DNA of 64,000 bases from Patescibacteria group bacterium (GCA_041645215.1 JBAZQK010000001.1:54091-118090), one strand, 5' to 3'; numbered from the stretch's first letter, positions 10,700 through 64,000 are shown. Numbers and translations: made by a program. The notes: a model not told the origin generated them from the letters alone.

Positions 10700-10700
10700 A

Positions 10701-24606: not shown

Positions 24607-24714
24607 GATAAATAAAGGGGCAAGTTGTCCGCTCCGTCGTCGCTCCGTCATCGCTTCGCCAGATCTCGCAGAGCGACGACGGAGCGGGAAACTACGAGGG
24701 CATAGGGAAATGTA

Positions 24715-24850: not shown

Positions 24851-24990
24851 GTAAAATTCAAAAATCTCCGCCCAAGGCGGATCTACCTAGGGTACGAAAA
24901 ATGTAAAATTATTTACAAATGTGTTTTATTTTTAAATTTGATAAGGGCTAATCAATTTTATTACTAATTTAAACTAAATTCAAGCTTATT

Positions 24991-34242: not shown

Positions 34243-34428
34243 CGGTTGGAATTAGAATTAAGAATTAAGAATTGCGAATTAAGCCACCCTATGGGTGGTC
34301 ACCCGAAAGGTGAAATCAAGAATTTAGGAGCACTTAATCCCCCTGAACACTTTAACACTTAAACAAATTTGAGCCAGTGATTAAGTGATCTAGTGTTCCA
34401 GTGTTCTCGTGTTTCAGTGTTATAGTGA

Positions 34429-35896: not shown

Positions 35897-36077
35897 TAAG
35901 AGATGGTTTCAAAACCCTTTTCGTGGCGTCCGTAAGGTGGATTGAACGAGACAAGGAAGATGAGCAAAATACCCGGAAACGTAGCAGTAGCTACGATGAG
36001 GACATTTTGGGAAATCTGACGCAGTCGCAGTCAAAAAACAGAGATTGCAGCAGAAATAGGGTTTTGAAACCATCTCA
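35897..36077. repeat. 181-bp element bounded by a perfect 18-bp inverted repeat upstream of leuS, a candidate leader RNA or MITE.
   Basis: gagatggtttcaaaaccc at 35897-35914 and gggttttgaaaccatctc at 36060-36077. The interior contains additional short stems. No T-box consensus is recognisable. Confidence 0.4.
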
Positions 36078-40099: not shown

Positions 40100-40301
40100 C
40101 TTAATTTAAAATGTAAATATCTCCGCCAAAGGCGGATCTGCCTCTGGCATGAAAAAATTAAAATGATAATGCAAAATGTAAAAATTATGAATTTAGACAT
40201 TTTATAATTTTGGTTGCCTTGTGCAACCATCCCGCCGCGGCGGGATAAAAGCAAAACTTTTATTGTCATTTTTCATTTTGATTTTTTATTTTTAAACTTT
40301 C

Positions 40302-40916: not shown

Positions 40917-41084
40917 AATGAAGTCGCCTTACATGTGGTCAGCCTTAGGGTGAAATTACGAATGACGGGTTAAGAATTAGAGTATTAAATAATTTTAAAT
41001 TTTAAATTCTTAATTTTTAATCAATTTTTAATAATTTAGTAATTCAATAAAAATTAAAAATTTGTAATTAGAAATTTTACTGTT

Positions 41085-42242: not shown

Positions 42243-42278
42243 GGAAAATGAATAAAGAATTACGAATCAAGAATTAAG

Positions 42279-42416
42279 CCCAGTATAACTACTTTGTTAT
42301 AGCTCGCTTTTAAAATAAAATTTATAAATCAAATAAGTAACCTATCTAATCATTATCTCTTATTAGTTACTTAATCTAAGCTCGCTAAATTTTATTTAAC
42401 AAAGTTGTTATACTGG
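42279..42416. mobile_element. MITE-like element of family 'cccagtata' (copy 2).
   Basis: cccagtataactactttgttatagctcgctttta ... aagctcgctaaattttatttaacaaagttgttatactggg. The terminal inverted repeats are about 35 bp. Confidence 0.5.
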
Positions 42417-42548
42417 GTAAGAATAGAACATCTAAATTCTAAAACCTAAATTTTATAAATAATACTCAACAGCCAATTAATAACTCAAAAGTTAAATATC
42501 AAAATGAAAAATTTTTATTTTTGATTTTTACATTTTAAATTTTTTATC

Positions 42549-43421
42549 ATGTCTCTTCCTTCTAGTCTTTTAGCTTGGACCAAACAATTGGTTAAGCAGT
42601 ATAATCTTCGTCCCGGTCGCCGGTTGGGGCAGCATTTTTTAATTGACCGCCAAGTATTAGAGCAGATTATGGCGGCGGCCGAATTAAAACCAGCAACTCC
42701 GGTTTTGGAAGTTGGCGGTGGTTTAGGGGCGTTAACCCTGTCATTATTAAATACCACTCCCCGTTTAACTGTCGTAGAGTTGGATAAAAATTTAGCGCCG
42801 CTGTTGCAAAAACTGGGGTTGGCTGCTGAACATTTTAAAGTTATTAGTGGTGATATTTTAAAAGTCAGTGACAAAGTTTTACAACAGTCGCTTAGTCTTG
42901 AGCCTGATGATGATTTTTATATAGTGGCTAACTTGCCCTACGAAATTTCCGGGGCTTTTTTGCGGCGATTTTTATCCGGCGTCTGGCGACCAGAGATTAT
43001 GGTGTTGTTATTGCAAGCGGAAGTAGCCGAACGTTTGGTGGCTAAACCAGGAGAAGTAAGTTTATTAACCCTGCAAGCTTGGTTGGCAGCTGAAGTAAAA
43101 ATAATAAAAAAAGTTAGACCAAGCTCATTTTATCCGCCGCCGCGAGTTAACTCTGCGATTGTTAAATTTAAGCTGCGTACAGTAGAGGAACGAATCGCTT
43201 TACTAAGTGGCCTAAGTGAGGAATATTTTTGGCAAGTGGCTAAGGCCGGATTTACTGCCCGACGAAAATATTTAATTAGCAATTTACATCGCCAGCTTAA
43301 GTTTGATAAATCAAAATTGATTGAGATTTTTAAAAAACTTGATATTCCGCTTTCGGTCCGGGCGCAGGAGCTGTCTTTGGAGCAGTGGGCGGAGTTAGCC
43401 GGAGGGTTGAATAAAGAATAG
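42549..43421 (+). CDS. rsmA: 16S rRNA (adenine1518/1519-N6)-dimethyltransferase.
   Basis: LGQHFLIDRQVLEQI...VLEVGGGLGALT...VANLPYEISGAFL are the KsgA/RsmA signature motifs. Confidence 0.9.
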   Translation: MSLPSSLLAWTKQLVKQYNLRPGRRLGQHFLIDRQVLEQIMAAAELKPATPVLEVGGGLGALTLSLLNTTPRLTVVELDKNLAPLLQKLGLAAEHFKVISGDILKVSDKVLQQSLSLEPDDDFYIVANLPYEISGAFLRRFLSGVWRPEIMVLLLQAEVAERLVAKPGEVSLLTLQAWLAAEVKIIKKVRPSSFYPPPRVNSAIVKFKLRTVEERIALLSGLSEEYFWQVAKAGFTARRKYLISNLHRQLKFDKSKLIEIFKKLDIPLSVRAQELSLEQWAELAGGLNKE

Positions 43422-43734
43422 CGAATTACGAATCACGAATGCAGAATTAGGATTATTGTAATTCCCTTTTTGGCATTCATTTATTTGACATTGAATTGGC
43501 ATTTGTTATTTGAAATTTGATATTACTGGTTCCTGTGTCATTCTGAAGCCGATGTCCATCGGCTGAAGAATCTAGATCCTTCACCCCACCAAGGGCGGGG
43601 TTCAGGATGACAAAAGCGTAAGTCCTATCAGTATTTTTTGTTCTTTGACTTTTCGCTACTTCCGTGCTATAATTAATGTACTTATTAAGAAAAATTTGTA
43701 AATTTTATCCAGTTTATTTGGCTGTTCAACCAAT

Positions 43735-44472
43735 ATGTCGCCAGAAAATCAGACTGGCCAATCAAATAGTTGGCAATTGGGGCTAGGCGCAGTGGCGATT
43801 TTGGCGTTAGTCTTGGGGGTTTGGCAAATTCGGAATTCAATTAGCGCGCCGTTTGCTTTTGTTGCTAGTAGTGATGCCAATCAGACCAATCAGCCGCCTA
43901 AAGTCAGTGATGACATTGAGGCTTTAAAAACTAAGGATAACGATACCGACGGCTTATCGGATTATGATGAAATTTATTTGTATCAGACCAGTCCGTATTT
44001 AAAAGATTCTGATTCCGACGGGATTAGCGATAAAACCGAGGTGGAGCGCGGCACTGACCCCAATTGTCCCACCGGTAAAAATTGCGGACCAGTACAATTT
44101 CAACCAACCGCGGCAGTTGATAATAATCCGCTGAATCTTGGTAACGCGCTGGCGCCGACACCGGAACAAATAAGAGCTTATTTAAAACAAAGCGGCGCGA
44201 CCGACAGTTTATTAGCGAGTTATAGCGACCAGCAGTTATTGGATTTGTATAAACAGGTGGCGGGCGAGGTTGCGCCCCAACCCGCATCCGCGCCCCCAAC
44301 CGCCGGTGAAAAAATCAGTTTAAAACCTGAGGAAAAAGCCGCTTTGCAAAAAATGACACCGGCTGAAATAAGGCAGTTTTTAATTAAAAGCGGGGTCAAA
44401 GCCGACGAGCTTAATAAAATAGACGATGTGACCTTAAAAGCGATGGTGGAGCAGATAATAAATGGGCAATAA
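43735..44472 (+). CDS. Membrane-anchored protein with thrombospondin-type-3-like Ca-binding repeats, the first gene of the T4SS-like island.
   Basis: N-terminal TM helix, then DNDTDGLSDYDE and DSDSDGISDKTE, matching the DxDxDGxxDxxE pattern. Confidence 0.4.
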   Translation: MSPENQTGQSNSWQLGLGAVAILALVLGVWQIRNSISAPFAFVASSDANQTNQPPKVSDDIEALKTKDNDTDGLSDYDEIYLYQTSPYLKDSDSDGISDKTEVERGTDPNCPTGKNCGPVQFQPTAAVDNNPLNLGNALAPTPEQIRAYLKQSGATDSLLASYSDQQLLDLYKQVAGEVAPQPASAPPTAGEKISLKPEEKAALQKMTPAEIRQFLIKSGVKADELNKIDDVTLKAMVEQIINGQ

Positions 44473-44579
44473 TTTAAAATGTAAATATCAAAAATTAAAA
44501 TGACAATGCAAAATGTAATAATTTTAAATTTTAATCTGTCATTTTCCATTTTGGTTTTTGAATTTTTAATTTAACCATT

Positions 44580-53500: not shown

Positions 53501-54905
53501 TAAAATAGTGATTTATCCTCGCGAATGGTGTTATAGTTTGGCGCAAGTAGTGGATAAACAACAAACCATCCCCAACAAAGCCCAAACTAATCGGGTGAAT
53601 ACTAGCTCAACTTATTCAATTTCTGGTTTAGGTTATAAATATGACAAAGATTCGCAAGGTAATCCGATTATTCCACCATTTGGCGCGGTTTTTAACAGCC
53701 CGTTGCAACCGGAAAATATTGATAAAATTGTGGCTGTTGTTCAGGAACCGGCGCAACAAAATAACCGATATCAAAATAATTCTGCCAACGCTATCTTTAG
53801 TTGCCGCACCGATCGCAGTGGTTTTGCCTGCGGCCAATGGATGTGCTTGGTTAATGGGCCGGGCGATATTAATGATGCTAGCAAGGTGGGGCAGGCTTGC
53901 AAAGTTACAGCCAACGCAACTTCATATTGTGGTTTAACACCAGCTTGCCCAGCCGGGGCTACTTGCGAAGCAGATTATCAAAAAGACCAGCCTTATATTT
54001 GTACCGGCACTAATCCGGTAATTACTATCCCCGGTAGCGACGGCGTGGCTGTGCTGACTAAACTTTATGAGCCAATTCAGGAGATCTTTGCTAAAGTTTA
54101 TAAGCGTTATGACTGGAGTGGCAAAGACAAAGCTTATCGGGAAATAACGGATAATAATCTTCTTCCGTCGTCACCTGATATTAGTAGTGATCCATCATTA
54201 ACCGACCCGCCAATAATAAGCAGTGTGACGCGCGACGACAAAGGCCGGGTTACGGGCGAAGATGTTAAATATAATTTCAGTATTTCCACTGTTCAGCAAA
54301 GCCGCGCCACTGGTGAAATTAAAGGCGTTAGTCCGTTAGCCGTAACCGCCGCCTTTTACGCTTATAATCCGAACGGCAACCAGATGCCCCTCAGGTTTGT
54401 GGGGGTTGATTGGGATAATAAATTACAGCCTGATAAAAATATTCAGGTACTAGCCTCGTTAAAGAATCACAAGCCGATTTGCCAAGCGCAATATGTCTGC
54501 GCCGGCGACCCCACTTTGTCTTGCGCTGATGTTAACGATACTAAACAGTGCGGCAATAAAGGGCCTTGCCAGCGAAATAAAGATTTTAATTTTGGCGACA
54601 GCCCCGATGCCTGTATAGACGACGAATCCGACCGCGCCGGCTACTTCTTCTACACCAATGTTTATACTTGTTCCGGGTCTGGTCATCCTAATTGGGATTC
54701 TAATAAGGGCGCTTGCGTTTATGAACCGAGCGTGGCCGTGCGCGATAACTGGGGGTGGTGGAGCAACGGCCAATATGACGACGCTGACGCTATTATTGCT
54801 GGCGCCACTGCCAATAATAAAACTTGGTTAGATTATAGTAAAAAGTCTGATACTACTGATACTGCTAATCCGGTCAAGATAATCGTAAAACCCAAGAGCC
54901 AGTAG
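44580..54905 (+). CDS. Giant secreted/surface protein of 3441 aa, Cys-, Thr-, Asn- and Gly-rich, with GTG start and signal peptide.
   Basis: Signal peptide LAIGLAMLTMATPALLTPRPAQAQ. A single uninterrupted ORF of 10.3 kb with more than 150 Cys residues, many in CxxC/CxxxxC spacings. Only short antisense ORFs overlap it. Confidence 0.6.
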   Translation: MFPSVKKGSKLKRLVAALAIGLAMLTMATPALLTPRPAQAQFTDVANLAVNTGKWIWERMVEVGDWVYKHGAAIAFRNAARTFTQKIAYDSANMLASGGQGQTPLFTWKNLGKSISDAGDEAAGSFLDGIASGGVWGKFNICEPTGPNAPFAKLMITMPAFNLNLSGAYKPIKPRCTLSKFKDNWNKVLNDPEAKKTFLKDFSVVFDPKQSELGVGLNVQTNLVKEIELKKYLAEKNATASGGILPITQTITQFIKTPAPRIERAANMTTEQALKEPLVFTGDILADALGVFTNTLAAKLMKRLTQGDIPNPAGIGPSSLFGAAYGASGVEYAQAINATLLTAPLAGGDVLDMISEFSGCPSDTQYAAINNCTINSKFEQALRKAEDGNALTVKEAINKGLISGGWVFKQEKPQNVRLPDAWYLSDIKKLRLARILPLGWELAVQKVSGQDVSLNDVMNGFTDTKSPYYHLIDPNWILKAPLSQCRLRGPGQIIQSAGGTRNDTCVDTQSCIAEDEDGTCSAWGYCTKDKNIWRLGGDSCEFPKGSGVSPYASCQTFTAPGGNSVSYLQNSLANFDDGVCSGAVGCRWYSTLFNSSPSATSANRYLLTKPPLYLKNLDKLTCDAANEGCTKFLRLTNINAVALGSVAGANPAEKVVNQVINSSDTYDKYAQVQSVTLKSAPVQFKCYDTDAGGKLITGNDSPECKNYLNLCRANEVGCDLYTPKDGSPAIPGVFEPTNTCPAQCVGYQVYQQQPTFFEKNPTPAQYFIPATAQKCSATAVGCEEFTNVSQNEQREYYSQLRQCIKPGAKAATYFTWVGSELTGYQLKRYSLKSSSASSLAAPATTDSSGDCRPSGSAQYPTADPDCKQFYDVAGNAHYRNLSVTITASDQCTRYRATNVSKTDCIGASGVSGVGGTGGEWDATVEKCFYNAIPQEGQMCNASQVGCREYKGPTGDNVKLVFPISTFGDNDAKTKWPIDASPTGDWKSGTISNDSSAAFGHSFDSGTDRIIYKDVAVGNITPDQQYVISFWAKKSALAGRPQSFNSAPLNSSALVPSNVSGVNFWWQGVKKQWSAVPGAQAQTSPISLTANPPVISNLISTPPASSATTNLTWTADTAPTDQITVSIDNGVLPPTTYLADSRCANAGSKTDTPCTNNDTCRVLTSTCRPADFKCKGGPQDGLACPTEQNSECQNTTATCASGKCSNNDTISCTGTDATPCRNTTATCESTTKKCSGPYKQNEICSVNNDCVDQTPICQINTPIPVKTGTVAVNLPTRIYSDYTLPIGATYNLSVAYSGGSTVTKQVAVKVNNPLGQFSLTSPLNGATNQSITPKIEWTASARATNYALTVGSDSYTLAATEVCSVASCSFTVPVNRKLQYNQAYAVSIQAATDIVTKNSDNSISFTTEQASAGVFGFNAPADDPLTTGGEDERLSIPVSNMEQGSIPVNIAWSPSSNATSYIVTVYQQEDAGMSLKWSTTTTTATAVAVDKGLLKYDTYCRIEVTALSGAASKSIKLEGSAGNNPCRTQQPPKSATVTDPASAAVIKTLNPIFRWQRGWWNISYKIEVQVNNGVSFVDLCGRDNLTTTVLTTPELSAGCGNNLTFKDLGSYRWRVISKNAHPNVAYSVVSPGATVDWSYFSVSTFEPSYGGSGVTYGSLPSVVGSNKENPTPPALKGLQAVLSGSSGQYSPAKCTDPNNPPVIVGKQDYKVTLAWDAYQNPTDKKQALGFNLYRGIGGQAVTYLGCLGATEVCKPNTPVGAITNTTYLDSSSRIKDLTANRFVYQLRAFNTGGESKGISVAVATSNPPIKPSCVPTAVTPDKGDIVVKLMVDGQPAAGVSSYELNSAEHADVAISTSGDKISGQAPGDYLFNYLGGSLTGFTNAEIYSLEASPGGSINCVGAPCGEVQGILQAGQTLTYTINFVTPPAPPASVPPNTNLDFSVASGGLASDWQLYTFGPYELPAPVDTANGVRVRISAADRFVIDNVILQQVADTVYVNKGSWKMPKDAAGGDLCKLKDIGCKAYTDRQKTTYNLTGFSKICRAEAIGCEALVDTRNSDSAKEISAAVSGQTIYTPADQLVYRVYDTKKACAASMQACQRVGEPVLSATGQAQSWGDKFVKLNPDTFSGNNSPLCSARQNRCQVFKTGSVPHYFKDPGNNVCEYKQLTPADQYGWYKQGTSEACNLLANASFENFEAANNITGQPITNSGTAGDNIEDAFKYWQRNNSSSTEQGAYLYALPSFGQGYYNGNTILKVKSVAQPYSGVWSEVVELPTVDTANPRYFTVGARLYVPLGAKMDTPWILSQHSYNGDEPTPVNCPQRLVNGVNVSSCHHYEYEPNEPGNDYTVTEADKGKWVYKSATIKADPGVKYVSLGIIVATDKDCANGRCKSDQEIYVDGVSITEGTAPYAYACPSEMSSCKAYRDPALTNSTYYYLDNKKLDRSSCGGKVSEKDGCLLLNDLSQSGELPWNANQSYGQSRNQDGVAVASVSGVGRCSNDPTQTKTCTKSSDCGSTTAYCDYKATNDSVAPDTNLILKVRRDRVCSEWLSCQTSTTVTDPQTGKTREICYSLGRCDQVSQSKAAGQCANWLEPEAQQHPLDEADYVGRNVTWAGQEYSGYSIPGLCSLDMVSSTPACGVAISKAKACRIYPEGDAPFPAKVARFDSDKADTAKIITRSPGYKDANVCQPGEDCECSYQRANYTSETKFFGYKGTPPSVINKVTEDCGSGQTNQEILEKCAEQSKLKQITLARGLKGYCLETDSSRRINASQDQACLTWLPIDVVQGETSIFDDKPEAGFTPQRTDGNLLYCLQANSNANRGTNKYEVISNNMGRKVEVNNFFGGGGASGVGDAMFDMMNIVKCDGADVCKERGTFSTDSEYIWSHVEHGFGFSLSLSDFEKQLGGIQAIDAIKIKGIYNVYPFELNLSRSVESAGDSWSGGSGGIGIRVKFNPADPDKFLDVQLYHTPASYGFFRFKIVIYPREWCYSLAQVVDKQQTIPNKAQTNRVNTSSTYSISGLGYKYDKDSQGNPIIPPFGAVFNSPLQPENIDKIVAVVQEPAQQNNRYQNNSANAIFSCRTDRSGFACGQWMCLVNGPGDINDASKVGQACKVTANATSYCGLTPACPAGATCEADYQKDQPYICTGTNPVITIPGSDGVAVLTKLYEPIQEIFAKVYKRYDWSGKDKAYREITDNNLLPSSPDISSDPSLTDPPIISSVTRDDKGRVTGEDVKYNFSISTVQQSRATGEIKGVSPLAVTAAFYAYNPNGNQMPLRFVGVDWDNKLQPDKNIQVLASLKNHKPICQAQYVCAGDPTLSCADVNDTKQCGNKGPCQRNKDFNFGDSPDACIDDESDRAGYFFYTNVYTCSGSGHPNWDSNKGACVYEPSVAVRDNWGWWSNGQYDDADAIIAGATANNKTWLDYSKKSDTTDTANPVKIIVKPKSQ

Positions 54906-55174
54906 TTAACAAGTTTAGGACTTGTGAGTTTGTCACCCCGAATTTATTTCGGGGTCTATTTTAATTTACTTGAATACGGTAAAAATTACTTTTTGCATAA
55001 CCCCTTTGTTTTTATTTTAGCTATCATTTATTTCCATGAAAGTTTGCATAAAATATCAAAATCTGTTATAATTAACTTATAATTTAGGTTAAAGTGTGGT
55101 AGAATTTAATAACACTTGATCACTTTATCACTCAAACACCGGAACAAAAGGACACTTGAGCATTATTCATGGGC

Positions 55175-55335
55175 AATGATAATTAATGTAAATATCAAAA
55201 ATCAAAATGCCTATTATAACTCAAAAGTCAAAAGTAAAAGCTTCGCTTTTAGTAGTTTTGCGATTTTCATGCCCGAGGCAGATCCGCCTTTGGCGGAGAC
55301 TTTTAACTTTTGACTTAAATTTAATATTTACATTT
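55175..55335. repeat. 'gatatttacatttt' family repeat element with a central ccgcctttggcgg hairpin and no cargo.
   Basis: The left end is aatgtaaatatcaaaaatcaaaatg...ctcaaaagtcaaaagtaaaag. The centre is ggcagatccgcctttggcggag. The right end is cttttaacttttgacttaaatttaatatttacatttta, the inverted complement of the left end. Confidence 0.45.
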
Positions 55336-55337
55336 TA

Positions 55338-55480
55338 CCCAGTATAACTACTTCGCTACAACTCGCTTTTAACAAAATTAGTGCAATTAATATATTAATC
55401 AGATTTAAATTATCATTTATTTACTAAACAGTCTGTCAACTCACGCTCGTTAATTTTGTTAGCGAAGTTGATATACTGGG
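55338..55480. mobile_element. MITE-like element of family 'cccagtata' (copy 3, inverted relative to copy 1).
   Basis: cccagtataactacttcgctacaactcgcttttaacaaaattag ... taattttgttagcgaagttgatatactggg. Confidence 0.5.
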
Positions 55481-55495
55481 TTTAAATTTCCTGTC

Positions 55496-58471
55496 GTGCT
55501 AACCGATATTAAATCAAAACTTAATCAATTGCTGTGGGCCGTGGTGGGCCAAAAACGGCGGCTTTATGTTGTGCCGCTGATAGCGGCCGGAATATCAGCT
55601 TTGTTACTAGTTGTGCCACTGCCGGCCTATGCCAGTTTATGGTCGTTGTTAGCGGAGTTAGTCTTATGGATTGCCAAGTTGATCGGCGGGTTGGTAATAA
55701 CTTTGATTGATATTTTAATACAGATTGTTCAGTATAATGATTTTATCAACGCGCCGGCGGTAAGTAAGGGGTGGGTAATAGTGCGCGATGTGGTGAATAT
55801 GTTTGTGATTGTGCTGATGCTGGTAATCGCCTTTGCCACCACTTTTCGCATTGAGGAGTATCAATATAAAAAACTATTAAGCAGACTGCTGATAATGTCG
55901 GTGCTGGTCAATTTTTCCAAAATGCTGACCGGCTTTTTTATTGATTTTGCCCAAGTGATAATGCTCACCTTTGTCAATGGTTTTAAAGAGGCGGCGGCCG
56001 GTAATTTTGTCAACGGTTTTAAAATTCAAGCTATGTATGATTTCGCGCAAAATACGGATGCCGCCGGAAAAGCTGACTCTGGTGATTTTTTGGTGGCCGC
56101 GCTGTTGGCGCTGATAAGTTTGACAATAACTTTGGTTGTGGTGGGGGTTTATGTGGTGGTGTTTTTGCTAAGAATTGTGTTTTTATGGATGCTAATCATT
56201 CTTTCGCCAATGGCTTTTGTGCTGTCGGCGTTTCCCGGGCAAGCTAAAAAATATTCTACCGAGTGGTGGGAATATTTTGGCAAATATTTAACTGCCGGCC
56301 CGATTCTGGCGTTCTTTTTATGGCTTAGCTTGGCGGTAATGCAGTTTGATAGCAGCGCCTTTGGCACAGCTTTTAAGGCAGAAACCAAAGAAACCGCCGG
56401 GGTGGGCACAGTGGCGAGCAGTGGCGCCGTGGGCGCTTCCATTTCTGCATTTGGTCAGTCTGATGTTTTGCTGTCGTTTATTATTAACATAATTTTATTG
56501 CTGGGCGGATTATGGATGACGCAGAAACTAGGCGTGGCCGGCGGCAAGCTGGCCGGGGCGGCTTTAGCCAAAATCCAATCCGCCGGCGCTTCAATCGCCA
56601 AAGCGCCATTCAAGCCAGTAGGATTTCTCGCCAGTCGTGTCTGGGGCACGGCTAAATACAATTGGAATTTGGCTACTTCAAAGTTGATGGAGGGGCATGA
56701 AGGCAAAAAAGTGGGAATTTTAAGGAAAGCGGCCTTTGCGGTTCTTAACCCAGTGGCTGCCGCCCGCGGTTGGGAAGCCCGTACTGAAGAGATAGAAAAA
56801 CAAGCACAGGAGATAGCCGGCGCTTATGGACGTGAAGTTACAGAGCAGTTCCGTACCGGCGGTAAGCTCAAGATGCCGTATGCCACTTTTACCGAAAGAC
56901 GGCACGAAGACGAGTTTCAGAAGGAATATCAGAATATGACTAAAGAAGAATTCATGGAAACTGCCCTTAATACCGAAAATTTGGGTGGTCTAGAGGGTAA
57001 ACGCCGTAGGCGCGCCATAGTGAAGTCAGCTGCTTCACAAGGGTATCTAGATGATATTATGCGTTTGGGCCACTTTGCCAATAAATACGGCAAGGCTGAT
57101 GGGACTGTATATGATGACGAGACTTTGGATAACTTTCTTTATGGCTACATGGGGCATGACCAGGAAAGTATGCGCGTGATGACGACTGACCTAGAACACC
57201 TTGGTAAGGGTACCCATCATTGGGAGTATCTCGGGCATGCTTATTTTGACCCCAAGTCCGGCGCTTACCATCGTGGCTACAACGTGAAAAGTAAGGATGA
57301 AAAAGGTAATGACGTCCTAGAGAATACTTGGCAGAAAGAATATTCACGGCAGGAGATTCAGAAGGTTGGTGGCCGTATTCGCGTTCAAGACGCCCCGCAT
57401 AATGAGTTGAGTATTAAAGGTGATATGTGGAAAGAAGGTGAGGAAGATGAAGATGGTAATGTGCATCATGCGGGCGAATTTAAGATTAATAAGGCAGGGA
57501 CCGAAGCTGGTCAAATAGCCGGGTTTAGGTGGGGACACGGCGAAGGAGGTCCTACCGGTTTCCAGCAGTACATAATGAGTGCAACTTCAGATGCTTCTAC
57601 TCTGCGCGATATACACTTTGCTCAAGGTAGAATGAAGGAGGCTATGCTCTCTAAAGAGGTGGATGGAAAGACTGGGGAGGTCATAGTTGATTCAATGGAG
57701 CAACTAGAGAAAATCCAGCATTTGTTTGATGAGATTCCAAATAAAATTTTAAGATTTTACGCCCAACTAGCAGATATTAATGATCTCAAAGAAATAGAGG
57801 CCCTGAGCGGGTTTGTAGTTAGGGTAAAGGACAAAGAAACAGGCCAAGAAACCTCCCATATTATAGGGGAACCAGAACATAAACCTCCTATAGCTGCTGA
57901 AACTGCTGCTAAACTTGCACGGGATAAAAGTATTCCAGGTAAGGATGAAAAGGAATTGGCTCCAAGAGAAAGCGCAGTGGCTGATGTGATCTCTCAAATG
58001 ATGTTGGGGCAGACCAATTCGCTTGATGCAATGGCAGCTGCTCTGGAGGGGAGTAAAAAGTTCGAGGATGGCACTGACTTTAATAAATTAGCAGAACAGG
58101 TCGTGGGGGCATGGTCGAGCAAACGACAAGAGTTTTTCGAGCCGAATGATTTAATGGGCCAGTTTGCTGGCAGGGGTGTTATGGGTAAAGATATGGTTGA
58201 TTTTGTTAAAGAAATTAAATCGGCAATTGTGCGGGGTTTCCTTGATGCTGCTATGATAAAAAAGCATGGGATTAGTAGTGATGATACTGTTAAGTTAATT
58301 AGGAACGCAGTGAGGTCTAAGATTTTCCCCGACCCCGAGAAACCAAATGAGGCCAGGGCTGGCAGGCAGAAGATTGAGTTCAGCGAACAGGAATTGGGAC
58401 AGTTACAGCCGCAGATTGATCTGACTATTCGTTCCTTCCTTCCTTTAGCTCCCTCCCAATCTTCTCCTTAG
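55496..58471 (+). CDS. VirB6/TrbL-like polytopic membrane protein with a roughly 600-aa hydrophilic C-terminal extension.
   Basis: The N-terminal 380 aa have six or seven TM helices with a VirB6/TcpH-like layout. The C-terminal part is charged and soluble. The position between the surface protein and the VirB3/VirB4 genes fits T4SS organisation. Confidence 0.45.
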   Translation: MLTDIKSKLNQLLWAVVGQKRRLYVVPLIAAGISALLLVVPLPAYASLWSLLAELVLWIAKLIGGLVITLIDILIQIVQYNDFINAPAVSKGWVIVRDVVNMFVIVLMLVIAFATTFRIEEYQYKKLLSRLLIMSVLVNFSKMLTGFFIDFAQVIMLTFVNGFKEAAAGNFVNGFKIQAMYDFAQNTDAAGKADSGDFLVAALLALISLTITLVVVGVYVVVFLLRIVFLWMLIILSPMAFVLSAFPGQAKKYSTEWWEYFGKYLTAGPILAFFLWLSLAVMQFDSSAFGTAFKAETKETAGVGTVASSGAVGASISAFGQSDVLLSFIINIILLLGGLWMTQKLGVAGGKLAGAALAKIQSAGASIAKAPFKPVGFLASRVWGTAKYNWNLATSKLMEGHEGKKVGILRKAAFAVLNPVAAARGWEARTEEIEKQAQEIAGAYGREVTEQFRTGGKLKMPYATFTERRHEDEFQKEYQNMTKEEFMETALNTENLGGLEGKRRRRAIVKSAASQGYLDDIMRLGHFANKYGKADGTVYDDETLDNFLYGYMGHDQESMRVMTTDLEHLGKGTHHWEYLGHAYFDPKSGAYHRGYNVKSKDEKGNDVLENTWQKEYSRQEIQKVGGRIRVQDAPHNELSIKGDMWKEGEEDEDGNVHHAGEFKINKAGTEAGQIAGFRWGHGEGGPTGFQQYIMSATSDASTLRDIHFAQGRMKEAMLSKEVDGKTGEVIVDSMEQLEKIQHLFDEIPNKILRFYAQLADINDLKEIEALSGFVVRVKDKETGQETSHIIGEPEHKPPIAAETAAKLARDKSIPGKDEKELAPRESAVADVISQMMLGQTNSLDAMAAALEGSKKFEDGTDFNKLAEQVVGAWSSKRQEFFEPNDLMGQFAGRGVMGKDMVDFVKEIKSAIVRGFLDAAMIKKHGISSDDTVKLIRNAVRSKIFPDPEKPNEARAGRQKIEFSEQELGQLQPQIDLTIRSFLPLAPSQSSP

Positions 58472-58541
58472 AAAATTTTTTATGATAGCTGTTTTGTGAC
58501 CCCCATTTATTTGTTATCAAATTAGAATCAAGGTTATAATT

Positions 58542-60539
58542 ATGACGCAATTACGGCGGTTAGACGACCTGCGGTATATTGACCCTCAAGAGCTTAATCA
58601 ACCTGCAGTTTTACAGCAGGTGACGGCCTTGACACGGGATTCTTATACTACTTACGAAGCTGATGAGATTGATTCGGCTATTTTGTCACTTGAGCAAGCG
58701 GTGGAATTGGTGGATGACGAGCTGGGTAAAAATTGGAAACTACGCCCTAGTTATGAAAAACTGTTGGCGCTGTTACGTTTTGGGCTTTTAATAGTTCGTT
58801 TTAGCGAGAAAGATGTTCGTGAGGTGTTGACTGGCAATCTGATTTTTTTTCTCAAAGAGGAACCGGATTTGCGGGAGCGTTTCCGCAGCTTGGTCTTTGT
58901 GCAGGGTGACTATAATATGGCTAAGCGCAAGGAACTGCTGAACATTTTGACCGTTAATCGTGAGCAGCTGGCCGGACACACTGTTGAGGAGTGGCTTAAG
59001 GACTACAACAACACAGTAGGTGCTAGTCAGAGAGGTGGGTTAACCCAGGTGAGCTATTTGAACCAAAGTCAGTTGGCAAAATCCTTGCATACCACCGAAG
59101 ATAGGGAAATTTTACTGAACCTTTTGCAAACCTATGATTGGCTTAGAGAGGGTGGCGCTTTGCCAGTTGAACTTATTGTGCCAGAACGTAAGTTAACCGC
59201 GGTCGGCCGTGAGCGTGTGCCGCACGCTGCAACCGTTGTTACTGGTAAACCTGAGGCCGATATTATTGCGCCAGCGTCTAATGCTTCACCAGTGACTGTC
59301 TCTGCTCCAGTTGCCTTAGCAAAGCCGCTCGCCGTCTCGGCTACTCCAGTAGCCACCCCGCCTGTCGAGGTTACCCGATCAACTTTCGTGCCGCCGCTTA
59401 AGCCGGTGCCGCAGGTGATGAAGTCCGCCCAGCCCGCGTTTTTGTTTGATGAGACGGATGAGCGGGAAGCAGACCGCTATCGCGAGCAAATGGCAAATAG
59501 CAAATGGCGAATGGCAGGAAGTCTAGAAGGTAAACTTAGGACTAGAGCCGAGGAAGTGGTTAAGGAGCGTAATTTCAGTTTTAAGGACGAGGTTAGCCAT
59601 AAGCGGTTTGTGCAGTTGTTTGTGTCGTTTTTGAAAGATGTGCGGGATGTTATTGAGACGCGGGAAATGCTGCTTAAAAGTACGGATAGCGGCGGACTTG
59701 GTTTAACCAGCGACAAAACCGAGAAAGTTATGGAGATTTTAGAGCAAGCGAAGAAGGAGTTTGAATCAAGAATTAAGAATCAAGAATTAAGAACAGAAGA
59801 GACAAAGCCGTTAGATTCTTCAGCCGATAGCCCTCGGTTTCAGAATGACAAAGTGAAGCAGGTTGATATAACATCTAAACCCAAAACCGAGTTGGATAAG
59901 ATGATTGAGGCCGAGGCAGTAGCACTGGAACACTTAAACACCCCAAAGAACGTCACTGGAGTGACGTCTACGGGGCAGGCTGGAACACTGGAACAAAAGA
60001 GTGAGATTCTTCACTCCGTTCAGAATGACAAGACGAGGCAGAATCTAGAAATTAATCCAGAAAAATTAGAAGTTACCAGACAACAGATTTTGCAGGAAAT
60101 CGTGGGGAAAATTGAAGCTGAAAAACCTCAAGCAGTAGGTTCGATAGAGTTGCGCACTACTGGGCAAGAGGGAGCAACGCGTCCGCGGTTAATGGATATT
60201 AAAGCCCCGCCCCGTGTGTTAGGGCCGGTGGAGGAGTTAAGAACCTTATCAATGGTTGATTTTCGTCGCTTAGCTAAAGAGCCGGTTGAGGTCTTAAATA
60301 AAATTAGTAAAAAAATTGATATTATTGGTGAAACTTCAGTGGGCAAGCGGGTGGAGGCGGTGCGGGCTTGGCAAAATTCGCCGGTATATCAGTTGTATTT
60401 AAAAATTGGCCGCCAAAGCATTGATAGTGGCAAATCAGTGGTTGATATAATTGCGGAATATACCAGCCAAGGGGAAGTTGTTTTGAGCGAGGGTGAGTTC
60501 AACGCCATTGTTGATTTTAATGAACGGATCAGATTCTAG
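58542..60539 (+). CDS. Hypothetical T4SS-associated protein of 665 aa, hydrophilic and coiled-coil-rich.
   Basis: No motif I recognise. It contains an in-frame GAATTAA-type repeat tract at 59760-59800. Confidence 0.35.
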   Translation: MTQLRRLDDLRYIDPQELNQPAVLQQVTALTRDSYTTYEADEIDSAILSLEQAVELVDDELGKNWKLRPSYEKLLALLRFGLLIVRFSEKDVREVLTGNLIFFLKEEPDLRERFRSLVFVQGDYNMAKRKELLNILTVNREQLAGHTVEEWLKDYNNTVGASQRGGLTQVSYLNQSQLAKSLHTTEDREILLNLLQTYDWLREGGALPVELIVPERKLTAVGRERVPHAATVVTGKPEADIIAPASNASPVTVSAPVALAKPLAVSATPVATPPVEVTRSTFVPPLKPVPQVMKSAQPAFLFDETDEREADRYREQMANSKWRMAGSLEGKLRTRAEEVVKERNFSFKDEVSHKRFVQLFVSFLKDVRDVIETREMLLKSTDSGGLGLTSDKTEKVMEILEQAKKEFESRIKNQELRTEETKPLDSSADSPRFQNDKVKQVDITSKPKTELDKMIEAEAVALEHLNTPKNVTGVTSTGQAGTLEQKSEILHSVQNDKTRQNLEINPEKLEVTRQQILQEIVGKIEAEKPQAVGSIELRTTGQEGATRPRLMDIKAPPRVLGPVEELRTLSMVDFRRLAKEPVEVLNKISKKIDIIGETSVGKRVEAVRAWQNSPVYQLYLKIGRQSIDSGKSVVDIIAEYTSQGEVVLSEGEFNAIVDFNERIRF

Positions 60540-60599
60540 AATTATGAATCAAGAATTAGGAATTAAGAATAATACAGCAAAAATAAAAACATTTACAGT

Positions 60600-61001
60600 A
60601 TGGAAACTCAAAACTCAAATCGCAAAAGTCAAAACCACAACGTAAAAGCTAAAAGTGATTTAAAACACAGATGTTATTATTATTCCATTAATATCATTAA
60701 GTTTTTAAAAACCCTGCCTAATGATAAAGTATACTGGAGCATATCAGACCAGCTATTAAGGAGTGCCACTAGTATTGGAGCCAATGTAATTGAGGCAAAA
60801 TCAGCCAGTTCCAGAAGAGATTTCATTAAATTTTATGACATTGCCCTAAAGAGCGCCAATGAAACCAAATATTGGTTAGCCTTAATGAGAGACGCTCTTG
60901 GCATAACCGCAATCCAGGTTAATCCTTTGTTGATTGAAGTTGAAGAACTATCTAATATTTTAGCCGCCAGCTTGTTAACCTTAAAGAACAAAAGACAATG
61001 A
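60600..61001 (+). CDS. Four-helix-bundle protein (23S rRNA intervening-sequence protein/Avd-like family), divergent copy.
   Basis: LLRSATSIGANVIEAKSASSRRDFIKFYDIALKSANETKYWLALMRD matches the family core (compare the copy at 62693). It is flanked by the inverted repeat caaaaccacaacgtaaaag / cttttgcgttgtggttttg. Confidence 0.65.
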   Translation: METQNSNRKSQNHNVKAKSDLKHRCYYYSINIIKFLKTLPNDKVYWSISDQLLRSATSIGANVIEAKSASSRRDFIKFYDIALKSANETKYWLALMRDALGITAIQVNPLLIEVEELSNILAASLLTLKNKRQ

Positions 61002-61017
61002 TTTTTACTTTTGCGTT

Positions 61018-61512
61018 GTGGTTTTGAGATTTGACTTTTTAGTTTTAACTTTTCCTACTGTGCAACAATTCGTCGTGCCCCAATTTATAGACGTTGAGGA
61101 TAAAATTTTTGGCCCCATAACCACGCGGCAATTCATTATTTTGTTAGTGGGGGCGTTTATTCTTTTTATTGAGTATAAAATATTAGATTTTACCCTGTTT
61201 GTTCTACTGGGGGTAATAACATTGGTAGTTTTTGGAATTTTGGCCTTTTTTAAGATAAATGGTATGCCGGTTCACTATTTTTTGTTAAACTTTACTCAAA
61301 GCTTCAAACGCCCCAAGGTGCGCATTTGGCAAAAGGATATTAATGAGCAAGAGCTTAAACTAAACCTGCATCGCCCCGTGATGGTTACTAAGGCCGTAAC
61401 GGCGCTAAAGCCGCCTTTGGAAAAATCTAAACTCACCCAACTTGGTATGTTGGTTGATACGGGAGGAATGTATAGAGGAGAGGAAGAAGAGATTAGTAAG
61501 AGGAGTAATTAA
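61018..61512 (+). CDS. PrgI/TcpE-like small membrane protein (VirB3 analogue of Gram-positive-type T4SS).
   Basis: KIFGPITTRQFIILLVGAFILFI followed by a second TM helix, the PrgI-family pattern. The true start may be an internal GTG. Confidence 0.5.
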   Translation: MVLRFDFLVLTFPTVQQFVVPQFIDVEDKIFGPITTRQFIILLVGAFILFIEYKILDFTLFVLLGVITLVVFGILAFFKINGMPVHYFLLNFTQSFKRPKVRIWQKDINEQELKLNLHRPVMVTKAVTALKPPLEKSKLTQLGMLVDTGGMYRGEEEEISKRSN

Positions 61513-61532
61513 TGTAAAATGCAAAAATCAAA

Positions 61533-61904
61533 ATGGAAAATGACAAATTAAAATTTAAAAATGAATTCAAGAAAAGATTATATTCTTTTGTACTAAGCTT
61601 AATTAAGTTTATTGAATCTCTATCTAAAGGGGCTGTCAGCGATGTAATGGGTAAGCAATTATTACGCAGTGGCACTAGTATATTGGCCAATTATATAGAG
61701 GCCAATTCAGCCAGTTCCAAAAAAGATTTTATTAACTTTTTTACTCATTCTTTAAAATCAGCTAATGAATCAAAAGTTTGGCTAACACTCTTAAGAGATA
61801 CTAATAAAGGCAGTAAATCAGAGGTTGATTATCTTTTAAATGAATTGATAGAAATAGCTAATATTTTAGCTTCAAGTATATTAACTCTTAAAAACAAAAA
61901 ATAA
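61533..61904 (+). CDS. Four-helix-bundle protein (IVS/Avd-like family), divergent copy.
   Basis: LLRSGTSILANYIEANSASSKKDFINFFTHSLKSANESKVWLTLLRD. It is flanked by inverted aatgtaaa(t)atcaaaaatcaaaat repeats. Confidence 0.65.
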   Translation: MENDKLKFKNEFKKRLYSFVLSLIKFIESLSKGAVSDVMGKQLLRSGTSILANYIEANSASSKKDFINFFTHSLKSANESKVWLTLLRDTNKGSKSEVDYLLNELIEIANILASSILTLKNKK

Positions 61905-61954
61905 TTTTGCATTTTTAATTGTAATTTTGATTTTTGATATTTACATTTTGAATT

Positions 61955-62647
61955 TTGACTATGCCCAAACGCGAATTAGCCGGTAAAAAAAAGTCGCTCC
62001 CGTCAACCACCAGGTACTTGGATATTGGCGAGATTAGGGATGATGCCGTAGTTTTAAGAGATGGCACCTTGCGGGCCGTGTTGATGTGTTCGTCAATTAA
62101 TTTTTCGCTGAAAAGCGATGACGAGCAGAAGGCAATCGTGCAGGGCTATGTAAGTTTTCTTAATTCTTTGGAATTTCCTTTACAAATTGTGGCCCAATCG
62201 CGCAAATTAAATATTGACGGGTATTTGGCCAATTTAAACAACATCGCCAAACAGCAAACTAATGAATTGTTACGGGTGCAGATTAATGATTACACGGCCT
62301 ATATTAAAGAACTAATATCACTGGGCGATATTATGACTAAGCGTTTTTATGTGGTGGTGCCGTATAATCCGGGTAGTGACAAACGCCGCAGCTTTTGGGA
62401 GAGATTTGTTTCCATTTTTTCCGCCGCTAAAGCCGTTAGATTGTCGCGTGATAAATTTAATAAATATTTGGAATCTTTGGAAAGACGGGCTGGTCAGGTA
62501 GAAAGCGGCCTGGCCTCAATGGGTTTAACCGCGGTCCGACTTGATACCCAAAGTTTAATTGAGCTTTATTATACAAGTTACAATCCGGAACTTAGAGAAA
62601 CGGAAAAGTTGGCCGGAATGGATGAGATACAAGTGGAAGCAGATTAA
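61955..62647 (+). CDS. N-terminal roughly 230 aa of a VirB4/TcpF/PrgJ-like T4SS ATPase, separated from the rest of the gene.
   Basis: RDGTLRAVLMCSSINFSLKSDDEQKAIVQGYVSFLNSLEFPLQIVAQSRKLNIDGYLANL ... TKRFYVVVPYNPG aligns with the N-terminal region of Gram-positive VirB4-like ATPases (the TcpF/PrgJ pattern). The ORF stops at 62647 and homology continues in the ORF starting at 63147. Confidence 0.65.
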   Translation: MTMPKRELAGKKKSLPSTTRYLDIGEIRDDAVVLRDGTLRAVLMCSSINFSLKSDDEQKAIVQGYVSFLNSLEFPLQIVAQSRKLNIDGYLANLNNIAKQQTNELLRVQINDYTAYIKELISLGDIMTKRFYVVVPYNPGSDKRRSFWERFVSIFSAAKAVRLSRDKFNKYLESLERRAGQVESGLASMGLTAVRLDTQSLIELYYTSYNPELRETEKLAGMDEIQVEAD

Positions 62648-62692
62648 AATGACAAAATAGAATTACGAATACCGAATCATGAATAGCGAATT

Positions 62693-63079
62693 ATGAATAA
62701 AACCAGCGATACCATAAAGTCTTTTACTGATTTAAATAGTTGGCGCGAAGCCCACCAACTAGTTTTGCTGGTTTATCAGGCGACTGGCAGTTTTCCTAAA
62801 GAGGAATTATTTGGTTTAACCAATCAAATTAGGCGCGCCGCAGTTTCAATTACTTCCAATATAGCTGAAGGATTTAGTCGTCAAAGTTATTCTGAAAAAG
62901 TGCATTTCTATTCTATCGCTCAAGGTTCTTTAACCGAAGTTCAAAATCAGTTGCTGATTGCTCGCGATATTGGTTATATAAAGATAAATTCTTTTACGGT
63001 TTTAGCTGACCAATCAATCGCTGCTCATAAGACGCTTAGCGGATTAATAAAAAAATCTAAAACTATTCGTGATTCGTGA
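62693..63079 (+). CDS. Four-helix-bundle protein (23S rRNA IVS protein/Avd-like), canonical copy.
   Basis: WREAHQLVLLVYQATGSFPKEELFGLTNQIRRAAVSITSNIAEGFSRQSYSEKVHFYSIAQGSLTEVQNQLLIARDIGYI is a textbook member of the family. Confidence 0.85.
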   Translation: MNKTSDTIKSFTDLNSWREAHQLVLLVYQATGSFPKEELFGLTNQIRRAAVSITSNIAEGFSRQSYSEKVHFYSIAQGSLTEVQNQLLIARDIGYIKINSFTVLADQSIAAHKTLSGLIKKSKTIRDS

Positions 63080-63146
63080 TTCGCTATTCGGAGTATTATA
63101 ATTTTACATTCTAACTTTTGACTTACCTTTGATATTTACATTTTAA

Positions 63147-64000
63147 ATTTTCTATCATGGCTATTTCTCCGGAAAAATTTGAAAGTGATTTACAAAAATC
63201 AGCCACTACCCGGGCGGCGCCCGCGGCAGCGGGAGAGGTGTCGGCTCGCCAGCTATTAGAGGCGGAGCGCATATTGCGCCAAGGTACGGTAAAAATAAGG
63301 GAATTAATCGCGCCGGCTTCATTCAAAGTTACGCCTGATCATGTTGAGTTAAACAATTTTTTTGTTAGAACTTTATTTGTTTTGACATATCCGCGTTATA
63401 TTTCTTTAGGCTGGTTTGCGCCTATCGTGAACTTGAATTTTGCGCTTGACATCGGAATGTACTTTTATTTGGTGCCCAGCGAAATTATTCTAAAACAATT
63501 GCGCAATAAAGTGGGCGCTCTGGAAGCGCAAATAATGGCCGACCACGAAAAAGGCGCGCCCCGCGACCCGGTGCGGGAGACCGCCCTGCAAGACATTGAA
63601 CAGTTGCGCGACAGCCTTACCCAGGGTTCGGAGAAATTTTTTCAGTTTGCTTTATATGTAACTTTATACGCCCCTAGCCTTAAAGAACTGGATAAGATTA
63701 CCGAGGAAGTGGAAAGTTTGTTCGGCTCTAAATTAATATATTCCCGTCGCGCTTTATGGCAGACGGAGCAGGGTTTTAATTCCACCTTGCCACTCGGTAA
63801 TGATGAATTGCAGATTTACTTTAATATGAATTCCTCGCCGATTGCTTCGTCTTTCCCGTTTACCTCGTCCGAACTTACCAGCGACAACGGAATTATGTAT
63901 GGCATTAACCGCCATAATAACTCGTTAATTTTATTTGATCGCTTTAGTTTGCAGAACGCCAACATGGTGGTATTTGCCACCTCGGGCGCTGGTAAAAGTT
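63147..64000 (+). CDS. VirB4/TcpF-like T4SS ATPase, central part up to the Walker A motif. It is open at the window end and absent from the ORF track because no stop is reached.
   Basis: The frame opens at ATG 63147 and runs to the window edge. LNNFFVRTLFVLTYPRYISLGWFAPIV and ...FPFTSSELTSDNGIMYGINRHNNSLILFDRFSLQNANMVVFATSGAGKS match the VirB4 signature preceding and including Walker A. Confidence 0.8.

Follow-up and report, generated by a model that had tools for sequence, protein, structure and literature searches.

What are three small four-helix-bundle (4HB) genes doing in the gene junctions of a single type IV secretion system (T4SS) operon? The question is raised by positions 60,540 to 63,146 of a 64,000-nt stretch of DNA from a Patescibacteria (Candidate Phyla Radiation, CPR) group bacterium (GCA_041645215.1 JBAZQK010000001.1:54091-118090), hereafter the window, within which coordinates are counted and which we compared with related loci or contigs (L001, L002, L003, L006, L012 and L029). 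A preliminary description had taken the three genes for small repeat-bounded mobile cassettes, and discrete, repeat-bounded cassettes are indeed what we find, each taking up the whole space between the stop codon that ends one operon gene and the start codon that opens the next (Table 1). We posit that each unit is probably a palindromic element of the type known from ribosomal RNA (rRNA) genes as the intervening sequence (IVS), living here in a protein-coding operon rather than in an rRNA gene.

The three genes (h1, h2 and h3) lie where they had first been placed, and their products score well over the curated cut-offs of both family models, PF05635 (23S_rRNA_IVP, 33.8 bits) and TIGR02436 (four helix bundle protein, 24 bits). 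By sequence homology, h3 also matches the solved pentameric four-helix-bundle protein 2GSC (XCC0516; E=5.8e-21) and h2 the solved structure PDB 2RLD (E=1.5e-15). Pairwise identities among the three are 50%, 28% and 22%, and a hidden Markov model (HMM) built from them recovers no further copy within the window. Evolutionarily, the ratio of nonsynonymous to synonymous substitution rates (dN/dS) is 0.12 for h2 against an 85%-identical paralogue (L001 5419-5790) and 0.09 for h3 against L006 2995-3381, and an identical h3 protein occurs in five contigs from five samples. Ratios of 0.09-0.12 indicate that the 4HB genes are kept by purifying selection and, as far as comparison can tell, that the protein is functional. 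As for a role in defence, PADLOC returned only one marginal HEPN-like match (h2, E=0.006).

Structurally, the cassettes measure 467, 444 and 443 nt (cassettes 1, 2 and 3) from outer arm end to outer arm end. Their repeats had been described as short, with heptamers in the third pair only; the motifs then named do exist, as cores, and the actual repeats are long heptamer arrays present in all six arms, each of which Tandem Repeats Finder (TRF) reports as a period-7 tandem array (AAACTCA/TTTTGAG, AATGCAA/AATTTTG and GAATAAC/ATTCGCG for the three pairs). The inverted repeats span 60 nt at 78% complementarity in cassette 1 (I1, 60595-60654 / 61002-61061), 50 nt at 76% in cassette 2 (I2, 61511-61560 / 61905-61954) and 35 nt at 77% in cassette 3 (I6, 62657-62691 / 63065-63099), and the arm motifs occur far more often than chance would allow (5 matches vs 0 expected; 2 vs 0.06 expected). 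In each case the start codon and first codons of the 4HB open reading frame (ORF) lie inside the left arm, and in cassette 3 the last five codons (TIRDS) and the stop codon lie inside the right arm. Predicted RNA folds close every unit with a terminal stem in both the minimum-free-energy and the centroid structures, 21 to 55 predicted pairs joining the two ends, with z-scores of -5.2, -2.0 and -3.4 for cassettes 1, 2 and 3, respectively. A consensus scan across 54800-64000, cassettes included, found no excess of promoter-like or terminator-like sites over shuffled controls.

Table 1 Features of the 4HB cassettes, their host genes and related ORF-less hairpins in the window (aa, amino acids; pI, isoelectric point)
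Feature	Position	Strand	Evidence or remark
Remnant left end of older GAAT-type cassette	60537-60596	+	TAG stop of 665-aa gene, GAATNAN heptamer array, leader, first 18 codons of disrupted 4HB ORF
Cassette 1 left arm, CAAAACT/CAAAAGT heptamers	60595-60654	+	Holds h1 ATG (60600); TRF period 7
h1 (4HB, 133 aa, pI 9.7)	60600-61001	+	PF05635 E=2.5e-22, 79.5 bits; TIGR02436 E=2.1e-25, 89.1 bits
Cassette 1 right arm	61002-61061	+	Reaches probable PrgI start GTG 61061
PrgI/VirB3-like host gene	61061-61512	+	PF12666 E=5.8e-11; probable start GTG 61061 (L002: ATG at homologous position)
Cassette 2 left arm, AATGNAA heptamers	61506-61560	+	Holds h2 ATG (61533); TRF period 7; homology with paralogous cassette L001 5392-5808 begins at 61506
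h2 (4HB, 123 aa, pI 9.6)	61533-61904	+	PF05635 E=1.4e-18, 67.5 bits; TIGR02436 E=5.4e-23, 81.3 bits
Cassette 2 right arm, AATTTTG heptamers	61903-61958	+	Stops 3 nt short of TraC-like gene ATG
Stand-alone VirB4 N-terminal (TraC-like) host gene, 228 aa	61961-62647	+	NCBIfam VirB4_plasma positions 110-233; PF26593 in look-up
Short left-arm remnant of older AAAATCA-type (h2-type) hairpin	62646-62660	+	Alignment with ORF-less hairpin at same L006 junction
Cassette 3 left arm, GAATNNN heptamers	62657-62700	+	Holds h3 ATG (62693); TRF period 7 at 62660-62700
h3 (4HB, 128 aa, pI 9.5)	62693-63079	+	PF05635 E=1.7e-35, 121.9 bits; TIGR02436 E=4.7e-34, 116.9 bits
Cassette 3 right arm, ATTCGNG heptamers	63065-63099	+	Inverted repeat, TRF period 7, fold
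Right arm of older AAAATCA-type hairpin hosting cassette 3	63095-63152	+	Stops 4 nt short of VirB4 C piece ATG
VirB4 ATPase (C piece) host gene	63157-64000, continues past window	+	NCBIfam conju_CD1110 E=3.1e-38, model positions 182-429; 624 aa in L001
ORF-less GAAT-type hairpin	5895-6001		Between two minus-strand genes, far from T4SS cluster
ORF-less hairpin with nested mini-inserts	40101-40300		Between leucyl-tRNA synthetase (LeuRS) and Sua5
ORF-less AAAATCA-type hairpin, 48-nt arms, 5-nt loop	44471-44571		Between 245-aa gene and 3441-aa gene
ORF-less composite of nested arm remnants (CACTTTA, AAAATCA, CAAAAGT types + 28-nt mini-insert)	55110-55335	+	Operon 5' leader

The host genes around the cassettes encode a 665-aa protein (no Pfam match), a PrgI-family protein, a 228-aa TraC-like protein and the VirB4 ATPase proper. 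Cassette 2 reaches into its upstream neighbour, with the PrgI C-terminus departing from those of L002 and L006 exactly where the cassette starts and the left end of the cassette providing PrgI's last codons and stop codon. Cassette 3 had been thought to sit inside VirB4, and an interruption of that gene is ruled out by its relatives: the best 120 homologues of the N-terminal piece (N piece) are all stand-alone patescibacterial proteins of 197-243 aa (the closest named one among them, from Candidatus Kerfeldbacteria, has 85% identity), the N piece closes with a stop codon in 80 of 80 species-level genome loci, and the ATPase is a separate ORF downstream in all 79 loci where it could be placed, following within 100 nt in 60 of these (median gap ~40 nt). 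Since the N and C pieces are separate genes in all relatives examined, cassette 3 occupies an ordinary gene junction like the other two. Across the 79 related loci with both pieces placed, a 4HB gene in the N-C gap is seen in the window's lineage only.

How stable these insertions are can be read from related contigs, recovered by exact-protein look-ups as independent contigs from five samples. The L002/L003 strain, 98% identical to the window in PrgI and VirB4, keeps cassette 3 and differs at the other two junctions, junction 1 being occupied by another 4HB cassette, truncated and armed with CACTTTA-type repeats, and junction 2 by a 288-nt ORF-less repeat composite. Even the window's own sample yields two contigs with two cassette 1 alleles, such that 29 of 30 differences over 3.3 kb fall within 60764-61016 (8% divergence) and the adjoining ~3 kb (61017-64000) has a single mismatch. 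The strain-level presence/absence polymorphism that the preliminary description proposed to look for is therefore present at junctions 1 and 2.

Beneath the present cassettes, traces of older ones can be made out. At junction 1, L006 has a complete GAAT-type cassette, the window only the first 60 nt of one with cassette 1 directly after, and L002 a third kind of cassette; the window remnant, which contains a period-7 array at 60538-60570, is 98% identical to L001 4348-4407 and can be aligned with the left ends of both complete GAAT-type cassettes in L006 (junctions J1 and J4). At the N-C junction of L006 (a Kerfeldbacteria genome) stands an ORF-less hairpin that can be aligned over its full length with the two arms of cassette 2 and with those of the L001 paralogue, and the hairpin's left arm still opens an h2-like ORF (ATGCAAAATGACAAATTAAAATTTAAAAATG). 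Because this hairpin both matches the arms of cassette 2 and retains the first ORF codons, the earlier suggestion that ORF-less copies are decayed cassettes holds good. The window retains, at the same junction, the right arm of such an older hairpin, nearly identical to the right arm of the L006 copy (10660-10700) and to that of cassette 2, together with a left-arm stub; lying between this arm and this stub, cassette 3 appears to be nested in an older decayed element.

Whole units have also been duplicated to new places. The two GAAT-type copies of L006, one before PrgI (J1) and one after VirB4 (J4), share 88% identity across 439 nt between flanks that are unrelated (41%), the similarity beginning at the upstream TAG stop and ending a few bases before the next start codon; flank alignment, the approach first suggested for defining termini and duplications, thus yields sharp ends for these two copies and no definable target-site duplication. 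For most 4HB proteins the closest relative is at a different junction, as with h3, whose 88%-identical counterpart lies in the L006 operon's 5' leader, and h1, whose 72%-identical one lies in L012, 4.7 kb on the downstream side of the N piece. Past the window's end in L001, VirB4 is followed by a 4HB remnant of 60 aa; a further complete cassette shares 86% identity with cassette 2, and one more lies 8.8 kb downstream, bringing a single operon to at least five full-length 4HB copies plus one remnant, all in the last 13 kb of ~73 kb of contiguous sequence. Between lineages, the GAAT-type elements (window 60537-60596, L001 4348-4550, L006 8773-9213 and 12575-13012) are 94-95% identical, as against ~75-78% for the host N and C genes of the window lineage and L006, whose synonymous sites are saturated, and this element identity above that of the host genes suggests that genomes have exchanged the elements recently or that constraint is unusually strong. 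Exact look-ups of h1, h2 and h3 returned each protein in its own context only, so there is no sign of very recent transposition of identical copies.

Is this architecture peculiar to one genome? In related T4SS operons, 22 of 22 independent full-length 4HB genes have heptamer inverted-repeat arms (25-100 nt, in at least 12 flavours), and all 35 4HB HMM matches in T4SS loci are on the operon strand. Beyond these operons, we assembled 80 metagenome loci with the closest h3 relatives (58-72% identity). The inverted-repeat score beats every shuffled control in 80% of the 75 h3-like cassettes with enough flank, and arms of one cassette pair better with each other than with foreign arms (43 vs 33, Wilcoxon p = 1e-11). 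These elements have a median size of 440 nt, with medians of 5 nt from the upstream stop to the left arm and 6 nt from the right arm to the next ORF, and their neighbour genes are co-oriented more often than the baseline (138/146 vs 198/245, or 81%; Fisher p = 1.3e-4). No rRNA was found in the 80 loci. The neighbours belong to 74 Pfam families, and the cassettes are not specific to T4SS; T4SS proteins are the commonest (T4SS_pilin 8, PrgI 7, TraC-like N piece 3 and TrbC 2, of 119-146 neighbours), and others include thiamine pyrophosphate enzymes, SecDF, aminoacyl-tRNA synthetases, ATP synthase, ParB, thymidylate synthase and RF-1. This suggests that the T4SS operon is a favoured, not an exclusive, cassette site, an enrichment weakened by the shared ancestry of related species. 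The ORF can differ as well: the VirB4 N-C junction of L029 (1813-2345) has, in place of a 4HB gene, a GxxExxY ORF of the PD-(D/E)XK family (TIGR04256 E=5.3e-13; PF13366, PDDEXK_3, E=5.9e-15) enclosed by GCGAAT-type heptamer inverted repeats. A second GxxExxY ORF precedes PrgI in L029 (1-500); the 63-nt direct repeat on either side of it takes in the start codon of PrgI. Judged from sequence, the cassette is a discrete unit of constant size, placed stop to start and co-oriented with its neighbours, duplicated to unrelated junctions, subject to nesting, replacement and ORF loss, and encoding a protein under selection.

These properties recall the 23S rRNA IVS, of which the hallmarks found here are terminal inverted repeats forming a long (predicted) stem, an S23p ORF in the loop, heptamers before the start codon and a length of ~430-445 nt; insertion in rRNA is the hallmark that is missing, the window having no rRNA. 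Compared with the IVS of Coxiella burnetii and Leptospira (PMC4990558), the cassettes encode the same protein family, are of nearly the same size (428-444 nt in Coxiella; 443-467 nt in the window; median in relatives, 440 nt) and likewise have an ORF in the loop of a long stem formed by terminal inverted repeats, which is predicted in our case; the Coxiella IVS also has tandem heptamers upstream of the start codon and a start region in or beside the stem. The differences are in habitat and dynamics. The rRNA elements sit in helix 25 or 45 of the 23S rRNA, whereas ours sit in stop-to-start junctions of protein-coding operons, many per operon, nested and polymorphic, and the ORF is under purifying selection here whereas that of Coxiella is reported to be decaying and probably untranslated (PMC4990558). 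Within CPR bacteria, the available part of a recent account (J Bacteriol 2024, PMC11270868) catalogues 23S_rRNA_IVP ORFs by Pfam in 16S and 23S rRNA insertions, thus the same protein family in the same radiation, sporadic over insertion sites; they are inside 16S/23S rRNA genes, and that part mentions neither heptamer arms nor operon-junction copies. Literature on TIGR02436, PF05635, S23p, GxxExxY and heptamer repeats yielded no description of operon-junction cassettes with heptamer arms, and what is new, as judged by these comparisons, is an IVS-type element in a new habitat, protein-coding operons, with visible population dynamics.

Mechanistically, the orientation of the cassettes and the lack of promoter or terminator signals suggest that each would be transcribed within the operon mRNA, where the arms are predicted to fold into a stem (20-55 bp) that brings the two host cistrons back together. 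By analogy with the homologous Coxiella IVS, for which RNase III excision was shown, this stem may be an RNase III substrate, in which case processing would make the insertion cost the host little. Comparison across strains and species shows that elements copy to new junctions, land in or overwrite older ones and finally lose their ORF, leaving ORF-less hairpins. The 4HB protein would most likely serve the element itself as a factor that binds nucleic acid, to judge from Avd, an accessory protein found in diversity-generating retroelements (DGRs). With Avd it shares a homologous basic four-helix-bundle fold (PF05635 is recognised as Avd-like), and Avd forms a pentamer that binds reverse transcriptase (RT) and RNA; hence the expectation that the 4HB proteins bind nucleic acid. 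A broader formulation, which we offer only tentatively and think doubtful, is that heptamer-armed cassettes form one widespread class of ORF-bearing palindromic elements homing to junctions and older hairpins, with 4HB or GxxExxY proteins as cargo, of which the rRNA IVS is a minor side-niche; the small protein would recognise the heptamer stem, and the stem would render the insertion harmless, through RNase III excision or by holding the upstream stop next to the downstream start.

Several observations weigh against an IVS-type element acting at the RNA level. Cassette 2 has only a weak stem (z = -2.0), and arm mismatches on the transcribed strand show no excess of G·U over A·C (40 vs 34 in 22 cassettes, 110 vs 163 in 75 cassettes), a strand test that is weak either way owing to register slippage in heptamer arrays. 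Given this lack of a G·U excess and the GxxExxY ORF of L029 in the same architecture, it may be DNA-level constraint or a copying mechanism, and not selection for RNA pairing, that maintains arm complementarity. Every nested case is without one arm of the older element, an arrangement equally compatible with recombinational replacement and with insertion; the aligned ends of the L006 J1/J4 copies and of the window copies show no consistent target-site duplication; the cassettes in the window are accompanied by no recombinase, transposase or RT; and junctions 1 and 4 are occupied in several species, which could also mean a conserved function.

That last point leads to the proposal that the cassettes are domesticated regulatory modules, the hairpins being mRNA-processing or stability elements that set T4SS gene output and the 4HB protein an RNA-binding regulator of the operon. 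In its favour, 6-8 related species hold 4HB cassettes at each of two junctions, the one ahead of PrgI and the one following VirB4; purifying selection acts on the proteins; h3-like cassettes have T4SS proteins next to them more often than proteins of any other kind; and between strains cassette 3 has changed less (1 mismatch in 505 nt) than the N gene beside it (20 in 687 nt). A regulator of T4SS output would, however, hardly be missing within 10 kb in ~69 of 80 related T4SS operons, nor would its occupied junctions vary by species and strain, its copies decay, nest and get swapped, the same cassettes adjoin unrelated housekeeping genes across the 74 families, or ORF-less hairpins stand between LeuRS, Sua5, a major facilitator superfamily (MFS) transporter and KsgA, and we regard this explanation as improbable. 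An element moved in trans at the DNA level, its arms serving as single-stranded or cruciform sites as in REP/RAYT or attC systems, or a nuclease-driven homing unit with 4HB cargo, would account for the missing G·U signature, the persistence of ORF-less hairpins, the better match of an element's arms to each other than to those of other elements, and the L029 locus, where the same architecture at the same N-C junction holds a PD-(D/E)XK ORF. It remains unlikely, as a site acting on DNA alone would not be expected to favour the host's direction of transcription so strongly, the ORF lies between the arms whereas the integron has a single site beside it, and the window offers no candidate enzyme, its sole recombinase (a PF00589 tyrosine recombinase, 24991-25890) being 35 kb away on the other strand.

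Dedicated mobility might be dispensed with altogether if the arrays arose by replication slippage and the 4HB genes were ordinary paralogues shuffled by homologous recombination between arrays. Heptamer arrays without an ORF at many junctions, and even in frame in the 665-aa gene, speak for this view, as do the dropped arm of the older element in each replacement and the failure to find a target-site duplication or transposase; we judge it improbable all the same, given the two L006 copies with sharp common ends and unrelated flanks, left and right arms that are always reverse complements despite at least 12 flavours, a constant element size (~440 nt), and an element identity between lineages that exceeds that of the host genes. 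As for Avd accessory genes of a DGR elsewhere in the genome, only h3 gives weak Avd-model matches (phrog_3206 E=6.2e-9; PF22296 21.3 bits; NF033474 20.2 bits), and both curated models fall far below their cut-offs (40 and 80 bits, respectively). No RT family was matched among the window ORFs scanned or looked up, no direct repeat of 50 nt or more resembling a template/variable repeat (TR/VR) pair occurs in the window, and the differences between the h1 alleles are mostly third-codon transitions, not adenine-specific. Unlike Avd, moreover, the 4HB genes are enclosed by inverted repeats and multi-copy, with at least five full-length copies and a remnant in a single operon, so that a DGR context, already set aside in the preliminary description, is rejected here and a distant DGR is highly improbable.

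Set beside other repeat families, the IVS-type cassettes keep a profile of their own. Palindromic elements such as REP/BIME, ERIC and the Correia elements of Neisseria are intergenic within operons and co-transcribed, and some are cut by RNase III or affect mRNA stability. They share with the cassettes the placement of inverted repeats between operon genes; they are without an ORF, with one conserved sequence per family and, in the case of miniature inverted-repeat transposable elements (MITEs), target-site duplications, whereas the cassettes have an ORF, very variable arm sequences on a constant heptamer build, and no duplication that we could find. For a MITE or a miniature derivative of an insertion sequence, the inverted repeats would fit, and the intact, selected ORF and the lack of a consistent target-site duplication led us to reject it. 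Integron gene cassettes resemble ours in having promoter-less, co-oriented ORFs; this candidate was also discarded, because the repeats bracket each ORF and differ between cassettes, without a single 3' attC. In heterocystous cyanobacteria, Elhai et al. in 2008 (Genome Res 18:1484) reportedly described tandem heptamer arrays between genes, with 'small dispersed repeats' nested in them. Arrays of that kind, intergenic and with structured ~21-30 nt inserts nested in them and in mini-transposons, are found here too, and the mini-inserts described below resemble those of Nostoc in having differing sequences and one secondary structure; the host here is patescibacterial and the arrays form complementary pairs enclosing an ORF, so the likeness appears to be one of kind, not of proven homology. 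We know of no link between the cyanobacterial arrays and 4HB genes.

The nature and spread of rRNA IVS and their S23p ORFs have been open since their description around 1990, and the Coxiella study offers hypotheses only (PMC4990558). Whereas rRNA has one conserved copy per site and thus little to compare, the operon cassettes come in many copies per operon, with strain alleles, nested insertions, decayed copies, sharp ends and a selected protein, material from which ends, target preference and the role of the protein could be defined. For the annotation of CPR genomes, they matter in that they give their neighbours stop codons and new C-termini, break metagenome assemblies and can be mistaken for gene interruptions, as happened with VirB4 here.

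The arm motifs are not confined to 4HB cassettes. They had been noted without a 4HB gene at 40101-40300, 44470-44579 and 55175-55335, where we find them again, and the same arm types, again without a 4HB gene, also occur at 34253-34283, 40991-41076, 42248-42276, 42476-42547 and 43416-43440. Hairpins or solo arrays of the same flavours and without an ORF follow LeuRS, Sua5, the MFS transporter and KsgA, precede the 3441-aa gene and lie in the operon leader. The motifs are thus generic intergenic heptamer hairpins, also between housekeeping genes, which bears out half of the objection raised at the outset, that the repeats might be generic motifs unrelated to 4HB genes; the other half fails, as most genes have no such hairpin upstream and insertion polymorphism is present. 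At the VirB4 N-C junction, at least nine other species have ORF-less heptamer hairpins, one containing 13 tandem CGCATAA copies. The leader composite is preceded by a promoter-like site (55043-55072) downstream of a terminator-like hairpin (54935-54955), and its orthologous position in L006 is taken up by an entire GAAT-type 4HB cassette. Heptamer arrays occur in frame inside the 665-aa gene as well, with GAATCAA/GAATTAA units at 59755-59790 where the 98%-related strain (L002 ~240-290) has four GAGTGGC units, and other repeat-derived stretches of this gene likewise differ between the two. The sequence ATGGG(C/A)AAT(G/A)ATAA, the start of the CACTTTA-type 4HB ORF, precedes an AAAATCA-type element at three places (44455-44475, 55162-55185 and L001 5370-5392), which suggests that new elements prefer to insert just within a resident one, or that the stub is mobilised with them.

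Smaller insertions are nested in the arms in turn. Mini-inserts of ~30 nt, each with two short G+C-rich hairpins, vary in sequence and keep the two-hairpin shape (window 34289-34318, 40122-40150, 40215-40250, 40924-40953, ~43550-43615 and 55272-55300), and such double hairpins occur in relatives at L001 5809-5840, L002 1887-1920 and L006 9735-9772; a 23-nt core, TCCGCCAAAGGCGGATCTGCCTC, is found four times inside arms, against none expected. A MITE-like element of ~140 nt with 21-nt terminal inverted repeats (CCCAGTATAACTAC...) and 4-bp target duplications has copies at 42279-42417, 55337-55481 and ~24706-24857 and at L001 4551-4690, two of them, with a TAAG duplication, sitting in GAATTAAGAAT heptamer arrays and one having TTTA. 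As a true MITE nearby with 4-bp duplications, it contrasts with the cassettes, which lack them.

Same-sample contigs branch or break at two places, ~35937-36077, where one contig, having overlapped for 141 nt, leads on to glycosyltransferase genes and not to LeuRS, and 60688-61353, where the break is inside cassette 1 and the two alleles coexist; the window may for this reason join strain variants across repeats. A look-up of the 500-aa ORF at 9305-10807 gave no record. The LeuRS gene (36233-40099) is unusually long (1288 aa), with an Abhydrolase_6 (alpha/beta-hydrolase) match between the synthetase domains. Partial tRNA duplications (18905-18971 vs 21753-21819, 19744-19821 vs 21679-21756 and 24467-24518 vs 24538-24589; tRNA-His 90% identical, tRNA-Arg 81%) flank a low-G+C stretch at 19-22 kb and also adjoin the tyrosine recombinase gene, and they look like scars of integrated elements.

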